This document shows positions 30,937-49,131 of a stretch of DNA of 64,000 nucleotides, piece after piece (the first letter of the stretch is position 1; the number at the start of each line of letters is the position of its first letter). Below the pieces are notes generated by a model. It was not told the origin of the DNA. It worked only from the letters and a program-made list of their open reading frames with translations, and did not search any database. The position numbers and the translations under genes are program-made. Source of the stretch: Macrostomum lignano (Eukaryota); the NCBI GenBank assembly GCA_002269645.1, contig NIVC01002162.1:133564-197563 (forward strand), read 5' to 3'.

Positions 30937-31047
30937 CTGGAAAAGGCAATGTTGGCGTGGAAATTGCGGTAACATGAGCAGGGCGGATAAGCAGTGGATA
31001 ATCACTGGCTTAGCTGAAGGGAAGTTGCGAAGAGACGAGAGAAAATG

Positions 31048-31790
31048 AACAGGTGAGATAGGGAGGAGGGACAGGTGAGATAGGGAGGAGAGACAGGTGA
31101 GAGGGAGAGGGACAGGTGAGATAGGGAGGAGGGACAGGTGAGATAGGGAGAAGAGACAGGTGAGAGGGAGAGGGACAGGTGAGAGGGAGAGGGACAGGTG
31201 AGAGTGAGAAGAGACAGGTGAGATAGGGAGGAGAGACAGGTGAGAGGGAGAGGGACAGGTGAGATAGGGAGGAGGGACAGGTGAGATAGGGAGGAGAGAC
31301 AGGTGAGATAGGGAGGAGAGACAGGTGAGAGGGAGAGGGACAGGTGAGAGGGAGGAGGGACAGGTGAGATAGGGAGAAGAGACAGGTGAGAGGGAGAGGG
31401 ACAGGTGAGAGGGAGAGGGACAGGTGAGAGTGAGAAGAGACAGGTGAGATAGGGAGGAGAGACAGGTGAGAGGGAGAGGGACAGGTGAGATAGGGAGGAG
31501 GGACAGGTGATATAGGGAGGAGAGACAGGTGAGAGGGAGAGGGACAGGTGAGAGGGAGGAGGGACAGGTGAGATAGGGAGAAGAGACAGGTGAGAGGGAG
31601 AGGGACAGGTGAGAGGGAGAGGGACAGGTGAGAGGGAGAAGAGACAGGTGAGATAGGGAGGAGAGACAGGTGAGAGGGAAAGGGACAGGTGAGATAGGGA
31701 GGAGAGACAGGTGAGATAGGGAGGAGAGACAGGTGAGAGGGAGAGGGACAGGTGAGAGGGAGAGGGACAAGTGAGATAGGGAGGAAGACA
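31048..31790. repeat. Purine-rich minisatellite, mixed 19/22-bp units
   Basis: GAGACAGGTGAGATAGGGAGGA and GGGACAGGTGAGAGGGAGA. Confidence 0.95.
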
Positions 31791-32181
31791 GAACGAATAG
31801 GAAATATGATAGTGAGATATAAGTAGGATAAGAAGAAAGCAGAAATCCTGATAAAAAAATCAAATTTTTTGAAAGCCAAGTCAGCGAATGAAACACAGAT
31901 AATGATCTGAAAAATGAGTTTTTGCGAATATCGAAAAAATAAAAAATTGGCTTATTCAGTTTAGCTAGTGCAAAAACCAGAACGTCATTACCTAATCTTT
32001 ATAAACACATTGTTGGAAACTAATGACCTAAGCTTAATTTTAAGCAGTCGTCTAAAGCCTTTAGCTTACAAAAATAGACCAAAATGGGTGGAAAACTGTG
32101 TAACAGTTCGTAATTAAACCTGTTTTGCCTAACCTACTGCTTGATTTTAAATTAACCGATAGCACACTTTGCTCACTGAAT

Positions 32182-33600
<1,419 letters not shown>

Positions 33601-34562
33601 TATGTGTAGATGTAAGCAATAAATAAAAATAGCTCCGGAAAAATCCATTTATCCAAACATTATCCTGGAACCACTACGAGTAACTAATTGACAAGTCAAT
33701 CGCAACTTTACTATATATCGATTATAGTGTTTAATAATTTAGGCATTCGGATAATGGCTTTCATATTGACACGAGCAGTCAATCACTCTGGGAAGGAGAA
33801 ACGCGGCAAATGCGCAAGATAAATGCGAGGAGCGGAATTGGGAAGAATATCCTTTAGATTGACGAAGGAAGAAGTCATTGGGAGTATGGATATTTATGTC
33901 AACACCAGAAATGTAATGTAATAAGTTCTAAAAGTGTTCAAGTCGCTCACTACCCACCACATACTATAGCTAGTCTGTATTTCAGCAGTTCCCCCCTCCC
34001 ATGAGCCTTGGTATCTCAGCACTTCCCCATCCCACAGCTGCGATGCAAATGACTCGACCGCAATTTATAAACACAAGCCTATATTTAGACTGAGTGCAAT
34101 ATAATTTGATTATTCAACTGGGCCATGCTTGTTAATTGAGCGCAGGCGCTTATCTACACATTAAAATTAAACACGTGGCTTGGTCAAAATGAATGATAGA
34201 AAAAATCGTTTCAGGAGTTTATGCGAGTGCACAACAGTGTCCCAACGTGCCTAAAGTGATTCAAACACTCCTTAATTTATTCACCTCTCATTAGCTACTC
34301 CGATGTACATATGCAATTGCACGTTCAAGTGATGCCTTAATTAATAGTAGAGCCAGCTATAAAGTGAAGTTGATTGACAAAAAGGCACGGTGCAAAGACT
34401 CATGTGCCTCTCTATATTGCTCAAATACTACCAACCAATGAGAATACTTCTGAGCGAGTTGCCAATAGAAACGCCTCGATTCCACCAACATATACTTACT
34501 ATGAGACAGTTATTATCGCATAAAACCAAACCAGGAAGCATCGCTCTGCACTTAGCTGCATA

Positions 34563-46041: not shown

Positions 46042-46215
46042 TTCTTCTTCTTCAGCGCTCCGAAACGCACGAGGGCCAGCGCCCCATGCTCCGTAGGAGC
46101 GAAAGAGCGAAGCCCGGCTCGGCGATGAGGTGCTCCACTTCAGTGCCGACCAGGCGTATGCGGTGCGCGTCCCCCCTCGGGCAGTTGAAAATCGCGTGTA
46201 GGCTCGAATCCGGTG
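46042..46215 (-). mobile_element. 3' end of non-LTR retrotransposon (C-terminal half of CCHC knuckle and (GAA)n tail)
   Basis: Joined across the insertion to 48636-49130 it reads CQDCGAPDSSLHAIFNCP; (GAA)4 tail at 46042-46053. Confidence 0.8.
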
Positions 46216-46519
46216 AGTAGTAGAGGATAACACAACTCTGCCGCAGGGAAAGCCACGGAAATTCCGTGGGCCCGGATCAGAAGGGCGCCTATGTGTTTGC
46301 ATAGCTCAACTCTGCCGCAGGCAAAGCCATGGGAATTCCGTAGACTCCTAATGAGAGTACATAGGCACCTGTGTTCCATAGGGGTAGGCCCCCTAATGTG
46401 AATACATAGCTGCATGTGTTTACATAGGAGATATTTGTATATAAACCAGAAAATTTGTTTTCACAAATAATAAAATTTTTGAAATTCTTGCTCCGTTACA
46501 TCGTAATAACTAATTAATA

Positions 46520-47263
46520 ATGGTCGATATTGGAGAAGGCTACAAACTTCAAGTACAAGAGTATGAAGGAGTACAGTTTATTGCGATTCGGAAATTTTAT
46601 CGACATGGCAGCACAGCAAGTTTAAAACCCGGCGTTCCCGGATTTAACCTCAACATCCGACAATGGGAGAAGTTGAAAGAACCGAAGCGAACTCTCGTGA
46701 AGGCGGCCCTAGGCGGGCAACAGAGGATCATCAAACTCGGTTTTGATAAGTTTGTTGAGGTTAAGAACGGCATCATCTGGCTAAGACGGCTTCCAGAAGA
46801 TTGCTGCGAAGAATTTTTGAAGCGAAACACTGTGGCCTTGGCACCAGCTCTGTGGCGAAAACTGTGGGAGCAGGCTGCATGGATCGACGAGCAGCTGTCT
46901 GCCCCACGCCAAATTTCTGATGTGTATGAGCTGGAGTCGGGATCTTCGAGCGAGAGAAACGGTGATGATGATGACAACAGCAACAAGGACGACACCATGC
47001 GGCTTGCGAAGACTGAGGATGAGGGCGTCCAATCAAGCACTCTACGCATCGACGATGAAGTGGTCACATCAACGCCTCTACCGGTGACAAGAGCTGCAGC
47101 TGGCTTTATCCCAAAGCAGGATTCGGATTTGCTGCAGGACCCAGTCTGGTATCGCTTCCGGGCTGAAGCAGCTGCGGTCGAGAACGTCAGGAAGCGCAAG
47201 CAACCATATCCGCTGCGCAGGCAGAACGCCATGAGACTGCGCCTCAATGAGGATGAGGAGTGA
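46520..47263 (+). CDS. Tandem PC4/Sub1-like ssDNA-binding domain protein with acidic tail and basic motif, 247 aa, intronless
   Basis: DIGEGYKLQVQEYEGVQFIAIRKFY...LKPGVPGFNLNIRQWEKLKE matches the PC4 pattern; second degenerate repeat ends WRKLWEQAAWIDEQL; TATA-like TATATAAA near 46439. Confidence 0.8.
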   Translation: MVDIGEGYKLQVQEYEGVQFIAIRKFYRHGSTASLKPGVPGFNLNIRQWEKLKEPKRTLVKAALGGQQRIIKLGFDKFVEVKNGIIWLRRLPEDCCEEFLKRNTVALAPALWRKLWEQAAWIDEQLSAPRQISDVYELESGSSSERNGDDDDNSNKDDTMRLAKTEDEGVQSSTLRIDDEVVTSTPLPVTRAAAGFIPKQDSDLLQDPVWYRFRAEAAAVENVRKRKQPYPLRRQNAMRLRLNEDEE

Positions 47264-47709
47264 AGAAGAAGAATAAGAAGTGCTTTGAAGAACTTTGGTG
47301 ACTGGTGACATACTTAAATTGGCTCATTTAACAATTTCTATAATTAACATTGCTCATTTATCCAGAAAACTTAATTAAGTCTCTCCATGTAAGAAAATCA
47401 TGCAACTTATTGTTTCTTATCCGCTAAAAAATATAAAAGCTTCTTTTCATAAAAAAATTGTTTTCCTTTGTTCTTGTGCTTAAGAAAAAAATTAGACTGT
47501 TGACTTTTGTTTCTTGAGAAAATGGAAAAAAATTATTTGCTCCTGGCCAACCAGCTAGTTTTTCAATTTGCTCAAAGCTGCTGCATCAAGTTAGAGAAGA
47601 GGGTGGGCATAAAAATTGAAAGAGCATTGAACAGTGGCTCAATGAGCAAACCGCGAAAAGAACTTAAAAAAATTTCATTCTTTCTGGCAGGAATGAAACT
47701 GGCAGGCTT

Positions 47710-47940
47710 TCATTCAGCTTGATTTTGATAATGGAAAAGATCTACTACAACCCTGCTCAGCCTGCCAGTTTCAGGCTCAGGCTCGAGTGCCAGCTCAGTT
47801 GTCTGGCACTCGTGGCAAAGCAACCAGCGACTTATAATGCAGCTGTCTTTTTTGTTATGGAGCTTTAACCCACCGAGCTCACATGAATTGCAGCTGATGC
47901 ACACCTCGTGCACGTAGGATGGACACCGAGATTTATTCAT
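47710..47940 (-). CDS. Small Cys-rich (CxxCxxC...CxxC) putative zinc-binding protein, 76 aa
   Basis: ATG-started GC-richer island within AT-rich DNA inside the TIR element, convergent to the PC4-like gene. Confidence 0.5.
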   Translation of the reverse strand: MNKSRCPSYVHEVCISCNSCELGGLKLHNKKDSCIISRWLLCHECQTTELALEPEPETGRLSRVVVDLFHYQNQAE

Positions 47941-48635
47941 TATTTAAAAATCTATGAGAAATTTAGTTTAAAATAAAATTTAAATTTAAACTTCTCATAT
48001 GCACATATTTAGCCTCTTATATACCCACTTCAACCAAATCTGTGTTAATAAAAACATAGCCGCTATGTTTTCAGCTTTGCTATGTTTACAGTCAGCCACC
48101 CAATGTCCAATGATTTCATCAGCGCATCCAGGTATTGAGCCCTTGTTAAATTCCCGCACGCCCCGCTAAATTCTTTTGAATACGCCGCCAACTTTACCCC
48201 ACCCAGTCGAGGGTGGCAATAAAACTACTGATAACTGAGCACTCTCTCCTTTCAGCAACAAAGCCGCCGCCGCCGCCAGCTCCCAGACAGCGGGAGAGAG
48301 AGAGGCTTGGCTACCACTATGTTTGTTTACAGAAGTTTGTTATTACCGATAAAATTATATAATAAAGTATTAGTATAATACTGAATACAATAAAATACCG
48401 CTGATATTTGCCAATCGTTCAACACAATTTCTAGAGATTCCCCTAGCTCGCCTCTGTGCATACTTGCGGATTCCCCCATGAGGTGCCTATGAACTCTCAT
48501 TAGGAGTCTACGGAATTCCCATGGCTTTGCCTGCGGCAGAGTTGAGCTATGCAAACACATAGGCGCCCTTCTGATCCGGGCCCACGGAATTTCCGTGGCT
48601 TTCCCTGCGGCAGAGTTGTGTTATCCTCTACTACT

Positions 48636-49131
48636 CCGGTGCCCCGCAATCCTGGCAGAGCAGGAGTCCGTCAGGCCGAAACGATGTCGGACCTCGGCGC
48701 CCAGCATGGAAGCACAGGCTCGGAGTTGGCAGGCAGCTGTGTGCTCGGCCCAACTTGGAACTTGTTCGCTCCCAGGCTCTGCGGCGCGCCATCTGACGCG
48801 CCCTGCTCTAACTGTGACTGTGCATGCGGGGTCGCATATACTTTGTTGTTTGTTGTTGTTGTTGGTGTGAAAAGTCGGCTAGGTAGGCCGGTGGCATGAC
48901 GCTGTCATCAAGGCGAATAGCGGCCTTGGCGGTACTACTGAGCGAAATGGCAGCCGAGGTTTGCGGCAGGCGGGCTGCGTGATTTGCGGTTCGGTCCGCG
49001 GCTTCATTAGCGGGTATGCCACAGTGGGCAGGGACCCAGGCGAGGTCGATGTCGTTGTAGTCGCAGGTGCCCAGGTTGATGAGGTTGTTGATGACGCCAG
49101 CAGATAGGCCGCTGTTCCTTGCTGTATACAT
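48636..49131 (-). mobile_element. 5'-truncated LINE fragment: RNase H C-terminus (I-group-like)
   Basis: LAWVPAHCGIPANEAADRTA motif followed by start of the CCHC knuckle. Confidence 0.85.

Follow-up and report, generated by a model that had tools for sequence, protein, structure and literature searches.

A 2.42-kb Maverick derivative at one site in the Macrostomum lignano assembly is probably an internally deleted relic

Non-autonomous Polinton families are present in Repbase, and they are multi-site. Of two accounts of animal Mavericks or Polintons (adintoviruses; PMC8097293, PMC8502044), the former gives ends with an (AGT)2//(ACT)2 or (AG)3 motif, terminal inverted repeats (TIRs) of 46-1,447 bp and a 6-bp target-site duplication (TSD), and an account of C. 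elegans Polinton-1_CB remnants (10.1101/2024.01.15.575659) states that copies partial at insertion cannot be told from copies deleted later. Here we examine a mini-element of 2,420 bp (positions 46216-48635) in a stretch of Macrostomum lignano DNA 64,000 nucleotides long (assembly GCA_002269645.1, contig NIVC01002162.1, 133,564 to 197,563, forward strand), which we call the window. We conclude that this mini-element, for which the assembly has a single insertion site, is very probably an internally deleted copy of a 16-kb Maverick from the same genome and likely an inert relic of error-prone end joining. By its ends, its TSD and its descent it is a member of the Mavericks/Polintons, and it is an ordinary case of a kind already known: like any internally deleted TIR element it has intact ends, encodes no enzymes and is potentially mobile in trans. 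It differs from the non-autonomous families in Repbase in not being multi-site. With the animal Mavericks, as described there, it shares (AGT)2//(ACT)2 ends, a TIR length within range and 6-bp TSDs, and it departs from them as a 2.42-kb copy without any core gene. Like the Polinton-1_CB remnants, it is a deleted copy with uncertain timing of deletion; unlike them, it has both TIRs and the TSD intact, and its parent and empty allele are known.

The mini-element begins with AGTAGTAG and ends with CTACTACT, which gives it AGTAGT termini. Its left TIR (46216..46370, plus strand), with the (AGT)2 end motif and two internal 41-bp repeats (46227-46267 and 46301-46341), and its right TIR (48481..48635, minus strand) are each 155 bp long and differ at a single position, number 144 of the TIR. 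The duplicated target CCGGTG flanks it at 46210..46215 and 48636..48641 and is single in a natural empty allele, found as one exact match on contig G000:C657, which is homologous to the window across about 40 kb at 91-98%; the (AGT)2//(ACT)2 TIR motif and a 6-bp TSD with an empty allele are the ends expected of a Maverick/Polinton. The host is the 3' region of a long interspersed element (LINE), which to the right of the insertion (48642..49131, minus strand) carries an RNase H remnant (RNase_H PF00075, E 1.6e-5) and then the CCHC motif that the insertion interrupts, and which resumes left of 46210. When the element is excised in silico, the minus strand gives the LINE frame CQDCGAPDSSLHAIFNCP, downstream of the RNase H remnant; a stop is already present upstream of the CCHC motif. 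An initial sequence-only reading of the window had described the 155-bp TIRs with one mismatch, their termini, the 6-bp CCGGTG duplication and a precise insertion restoring the LINE CCHC frame, all of which hold, and the natural empty allele now adds to them. The same reading allowed for a Sola2-like parse, in which the termini are G and the TSD has 4 bp; some other cut-and-paste element of that form is a further candidate. The palindrome CCGG at this site permits such a parse, but the interior is Maverick sequence, and other copies begin with AGTAGTAG and are flanked by varied, perfect 6-bp TSDs (ACTGTG, ATTGGC, CATGCG, CACGTT and CAAGTC, all different), so that the 4-bp parse is ruled out, the 6-bp one stands, and a Sola2-like identity is next to inconceivable. 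These TSDs are perfect in 5 of the 10 other two-ended copies examined in the mini-element's subfamily, the remaining five being mismatched or rearranged.

Full-size Mavericks with the same TIR, which the sequence-only reading had predicted, are indeed present. Among the best 40 of 156 candidates scored in a TIR search of the genome, matches are 96-100% identical, and six TIR pairs enclose elements of 15.5-17.1 kb. Genes were annotated on one natural copy, with the A32-like ATPase scored on a second. From the left, the parent carries the PC4-like gene, an rve+chromo integrase, a 275-aa open reading frame (ORF), a basic ORF, a 427-aa ORF, a C5-like protease, the A32-like ATPase, three ORFs and a TBP-like gene, and at the right end pPolB on the opposite strand, followed by an ORF of 323-475 aa. 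The assignments draw on matches to rve (E 2e-12), Peptidase_C5 (E 0.003), Pox_A32 (E 0.011) and, for the DNA polymerase, phrog_1907 (E 7e-10); no match to pPolB was found among PDB sequences. The 427-aa ORF scores 0.98 with a double jelly-roll (DJR)-like cluster, a value under the Atlas recognition mark, and the 275-aa ORF is taken as the minor capsid gene by its position only. The family thus has the gene set of an autonomous Maverick/Polinton, namely pPolB, integrase, ATPase, protease and capsids, the minor one by position. The parent, at ~16 kb, resembles the animal Mavericks in its pPolB, rve integrase, C5-like protease, A32-like ATPase and DJR-like capsid and in the arrangement of its genes as two modules pointing inward; what sets it apart from them is a tandem PC4, a TBP-like gene and, within pPolB, an endonuclease VII domain.

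The arms of the mini-element match full-length copies of this family, which confirms it as a Maverick/Polinton derivative. The left arm (mini bases 1-1,557; 46216..47772, plus strand) is the first ~1.54 kb of the 16-kb parent, 95-98% identical with gaps included, and the right arm (bases 1,576-2,420; 47791..48635, plus strand) is the last 845 bp, 99.8% identical to four copies. Between them an 18-bp filler (47773..47790) replaces about 13.6 kb of parent. Both breakpoints lie inside parent genes: on the left the integrase is cut past its codon 14, on the right the right-end ORF past its codon 50. All of pPolB, the capsids, the ATPase and the protease is gone, together with nearly the entire integrase. 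As had been claimed, the element is without polymerase, integrase and capsid genes: an autonomous Maverick encodes pPolB and an rve integrase, and what is left here is the first 14 codons of the 356-aa rve+chromo integrase (47731..47772, plus strand). The filler contains an inverted copy of the DNA immediately right of the break. Some 70 bp upstream of the join, a mini-specific insertion of about 22 bp net (47676..47701), absent from 13 of 13 other aligned copies, is made up of direct and inverted local pieces, one of them a 14-nt inverted stretch that derives from the left breakpoint. The templated matches in the filler and the 14-nt piece are above chance, each being reached in none of 1,000 random 150-nt windows of the parent. 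PMC2895639 describes, for alternative end joining by polymerase theta, templated insertions in which direct and reverse-complement pieces are mixed. The join here resembles that description, and template switching as the element replicates itself would leave a similar scar.

A Maverick end thus stands precisely inserted in the LINE with a 6-bp TSD, and about 13.6 kb is missing; we posit that the join would have been made by polymerase-theta-type alternative end joining or by template switching. The timing may be either of two. Deletion in place, after a full-size copy had inserted, is the most likely course, with a slightly better than even chance; with a chance slightly under even, the deletion would have come first and the shortened element would then have been inserted once by the proteins of a full-size copy.

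It might also be supposed that there was no deletion and that a full-length copy was collapsed in assembly. The junction, the filler, the 22-bp insertion and the private substitutions are, however, shared by three separately assembled contigs, and the filler is novel templated sequence, unlike the product of a repeat collapse. In a comparison with the contigs of four of the 24 listed public runs, with a match bar of 31 letters, the sequence at both breakpoints carried the letters of the parent and ran on as in the parent, and an X1 contig had the empty site. None of the listed public-run pieces crosses the junction, a gap that would fit a collapse but proves nothing, and the pieces that run from the flank into the TIR reach 27-29 letters inside, below the bar. 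An artefact is accordingly hard to credit.

The exact deletion junction occurs three times genome-wide, on contigs C2162, C654 and C4151, and is spanned by 3 of the 42 matches to a 221-bp junction region. These three contigs have the same LINE flanks (on C4151 the left end is lost at the contig start), homologous to the window for 15-20 kb, and with the empty C657 they make up four homologous contigs, three filled and one empty. Since all three junctions stand in the same flanks, on three of four homologous contigs, they represent one insertion event. Of 39 exact termini belonging to the mini-element's subfamily, five are in these flanks, all of the 2.42-kb form. A non-autonomous family would show the same deleted form at several sites with different TSDs, and this one is at one site in three cases of three. 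The uniform 2.4-kb family with different TSDs that the sequence-only reading had proposed is rejected on this count, and its idea of a young satellite family that kept a single-stranded DNA-binding gene finds no support in a single site, a PC4 gene that is the first beside the left TIR, and a second ORF that is a truncation. That reading had itself named a single-copy locus as an outcome that would speak against it, and in this assembly the locus is single-copy. As a separate observation, made at the left flank of C654, this contig matches the window at 99.5% to one side of the element and is nearer to C657 on the other (98.6% vs 94-97%), either through recombination or through a haplotype switch in the assembly.

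Other deleted copies put this one in context. Eleven distinct two-ended deletion forms were examined in three subfamilies, with sizes of 1.3, 2.4, 3.0, 5.5, 6.7, 7.8, 7.9, 8.4, 12.1, 13.7 and 14.9 kb and no uniform size class. Two forms in subfamily B each occur at two different insertion sites with base-identical junctions: one without most of pPolB (G000:C84:667694-679831 and C106:360392-372511, TSDs TCTATA and CTAGCA) and one that has lost the minor capsid gene along with the greater part of the major capsid gene (C3033:16910-30651 and C2466 from 132278). Because two deletion forms lie at separate sites, defective forms have likely moved in trans in this clade, and Maverick borrowing in trans is, to judge from sequence, likely real here. 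Subfamily B also has an independent PC4-only mini-element of 1,334 bp (L117:501-1834; G000:C356:361552-362885) with an open 254-aa ORF and a 6-bp TSD with one mismatch. Of 40 matches scored, a single one runs across its junction, at one site; a direct check that the junction is unique covered only the 2.42-kb and 1.33-kb forms.

A gene-less element of 335 bp on G000:C12 (L171:3746-4080) has AGTAGT ends and a perfect GAAATT TSD and is nested in the TIR of another Maverick; its ends resemble those of a further TIR-bounded family of ~17.6 kb, and no close second copy of it was found. Pieces of ~290 bp with AGTAGT ends (L175, L181) were considered as a family of miniature inverted-repeat transposable elements and rejected, as they have no TSDs.

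Several points weigh against our reading of an inert relic deleted in place. A single assembly was searched, and among the four homologous contigs none has a full-length allele at the insertion site. The deleted forms at separate sites in the sister subfamily mean that the 2.42-kb mini-element could be mobile as well. PC4 sequence is kept in 11 of the 11 two-ended deletion forms (frameshifted in one), against 7 of 11 for most or all of the right-end ORF, and the left arm is longer than the right in the three smallest, together a weak asymmetry; in the mini-element the PC4 ORF and a TATA-like word upstream are still intact. Lastly, its three private PC4 changes fit neutral decay and are too few to prove neutrality. 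Some of these points would favour a genuine satellite, or a defective-interfering mini-Maverick, that depends on replication and integration in trans and whose PC4 is under selection, as would the intact TIRs, nearly identical to those of full-size copies, the identical subfamily B deletions at two sites each and the second, independent PC4-only mini-element. Such a satellite is nonetheless improbable, given that the 2.42-kb junction is at one site only, that the C356 junction is in 1 of 40 scored matches, and that retention of PC4 is expected from its place near the left end. PC4 ends about 1,050 bp from that end, so position predicts its retention, and we consider it likely that it would have been kept as the gene adjoining the left TIR; to keep the right-end ORF requires about 1,700 bp. 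Elsewhere PC4 is cut by a deletion (C414) or frameshifted (C109), and the mini-element has a private proline in a PC4 helix. We likewise doubt the bolder proposal that TIR-PC4-TIR is a minimal viable defective-interfering Maverick, arisen twice independently (2.42 and 1.33 kb), which full-size relatives would copy and integrate, as they evidently do the larger deleted forms, and which would retain its tandem PC4 gene because the single-stranded DNA-binding product helps the element's own replication or poisons that of the helper.

The PC4/Sub1-like gene (46520..47263, plus strand), the parent's first gene, encodes 247 aa, with a predicted tandem PC4 domain (aa 1-127) and an acidic tail. Pfam (PF02229, E 8e-7, 28.9 bits against a cutoff of 25), a PDB sequence search (4usg, E 5e-5) and Atlas agree on the assignment, and the beta-sheet plus helix of the PC4/Sub1 fold is present. 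A structure predicted from a 20-sequence alignment (mean predicted local distance difference test, pLDDT, of 89) has two strand-helix repeats. As BLASTP gives no alignment between repeat 1 and repeat 2, the word tandem rests on this model, which together with fold matches supports the tandem PC4 of the sequence-only reading. Modelled repeat 1 overlays human PC4 at a root-mean-square deviation of 1.4-1.8 A, and the two-repeat unit compares with PURA I-II at TMq 0.62, the PDB Foldseek matches having E values of 4e-3 or weaker. The best viral fold match is a protein annotated MOSUB of the Branchiostoma lancelet adintovirus (UniProt A0A5H3CIS2; E 5.9e-6, TMq 0.73), so that the databases already contain an animal Maverick gene of the PC4 type. 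The modelled fold is like those of MOSUB, human PC4 and PUR repeats I-II, unlike in sequence as identity to MOSUB is 19%. We found no paper discussing a PC4-type gene in animal Mavericks, though the gene-map supplements of PMC8502044 may show MOSUB or TBP, and no PC4 relatives were confirmed in metagenome and viral contigs. On the model, the parent protein is predicted to be a single-chain tandem single-stranded DNA-binding protein (SSB) for strand-displacement replication or transcription, and it may act as an SSB in replication or as a coactivator beside the TBP-like gene.

PC4 is a core gene of the family. There are at least 150 PC4 matches genome-wide, across several subfamilies (best 150 of 277 candidates), and the ratio of nonsynonymous to synonymous change (dN/dS) in the domain is 0.07 against the C210 and C3389 copies and 0.07-0.21 where silent changes exist, dS being saturated between subfamilies A and B. 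These ratios mark the domain, at the level of sequence comparison, as under purifying selection in the family. The mini-element's PC4 ORF has three private codon changes, two of them amino-acid-changing and one silent, and the private proline, at residue 55 in a predicted helix, is in a column invariant in the other 20 ORFs. Against nine longer copies, the private differences of the whole mini-element come to eight substitutions and one 1-bp insertion, about 0.3-0.4%, and 46683, 47092 and 47227 are among its private positions; its three closest relatives differ in no more than a single gap across the left arm.

The second ORF reported by the sequence-only reading is likewise present (47710..47940, minus strand), but it is not the whole gene that a 76-aa Cys-rich protein might suggest. 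With the right-end ORF broken past its codon 50, the product consists of the 50 N-terminal residues of the parent's 323-475-aa protein and 26 residues encoded by the filler at the junction and by integrase sequence read antisense. The retained residues include the whole Cys/His cluster and an LLCHE motif that is conserved in the right-end ORF of subfamilies A and B; among 30 candidates this ORF had no homologues at E<=0.001. PMC8502044 defines an 'Oncoid' class by an LXCXE motif close to paired CXXC and to a CK2 site, in an ORF that lies upstream of PolB. The right-end ORF has LLCHE, CXXC and the position upstream of pPolB, with no (S/T)XX(D/E) directly after the motif. One might imagine from this a fixed or spreading allele, in which the PC4 variant or the 50-residue LxCxE-like Cys/His peptide acts in trans on Mavericks or the host, the more so as three of four homologous contigs are filled. 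However, an empty allele exists on C657 and in the X1 contig, the homologous contigs are perhaps just redundant haplotypes, the resemblance to the motif covers five letters, which overlap a CXXC and have no CK2 site next to them, and the genome has at least 150 other PC4 matches. We hold such an allele to be very unlikely.

As a deletion relic, the mini-element offers a well-resolved case of Maverick decay, with parent, empty allele and repair scar all visible, and a caution to count insertion sites before TIR-bounded mini-elements are named satellites. The surrounding family matters more than the mini-element itself. Its separate-site forms without most of pPolB or capsid genes are genomic evidence that Maverick replication and integration can proceed in trans. 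The parent has a tandem PC4 together with a TBP-like gene, and the idea that Mavericks encode an SSB or transcription module can therefore be put to the test.

The TBP-like gene, of 196 aa, lies in the full-length parent on G000:C4371 (L031:7816-8406, minus strand), overlaps a 283-aa ORF, matches PF00352 at E 4.8e-26 with two repeats and TBPs in the PDB at E about 1e-14, and is 78-79% identical in subfamily B. No relatives of it were found in viral contigs, and in the available text of PMC8502044 the sole mention of TBP stands in the legend to a figure, within the part that deals with non-animal viruses. Residues 478-516 of the parent's pPolB (L031:3253-7086) match an endonuclease VII-like domain (PF02945, E 3.4e-6). 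Genome-wide, at least five Maverick subfamilies have the order PC4-integrase-minor capsid-basic-major capsid, with integrase sequence next after PC4 in 18 of 20 sampled loci. Four elements in G000 (C664:26381-38918, C3189:41270-55473, C2692 and C1450) have the same end region on both sides, either PC4 twice or the right arm twice, and are either inverted duplications or assembly fold-backs. In the window, a 66-aa ORF at 47522-47722 was rejected as a gene, as the corresponding frame is not open in the one parent copy that was compared, and a 211-aa antisense ORF has no Pfam match. Positions 31001-34000 of the window show strong GC and AT skew, up to 0.73, and are probably simple repeats.

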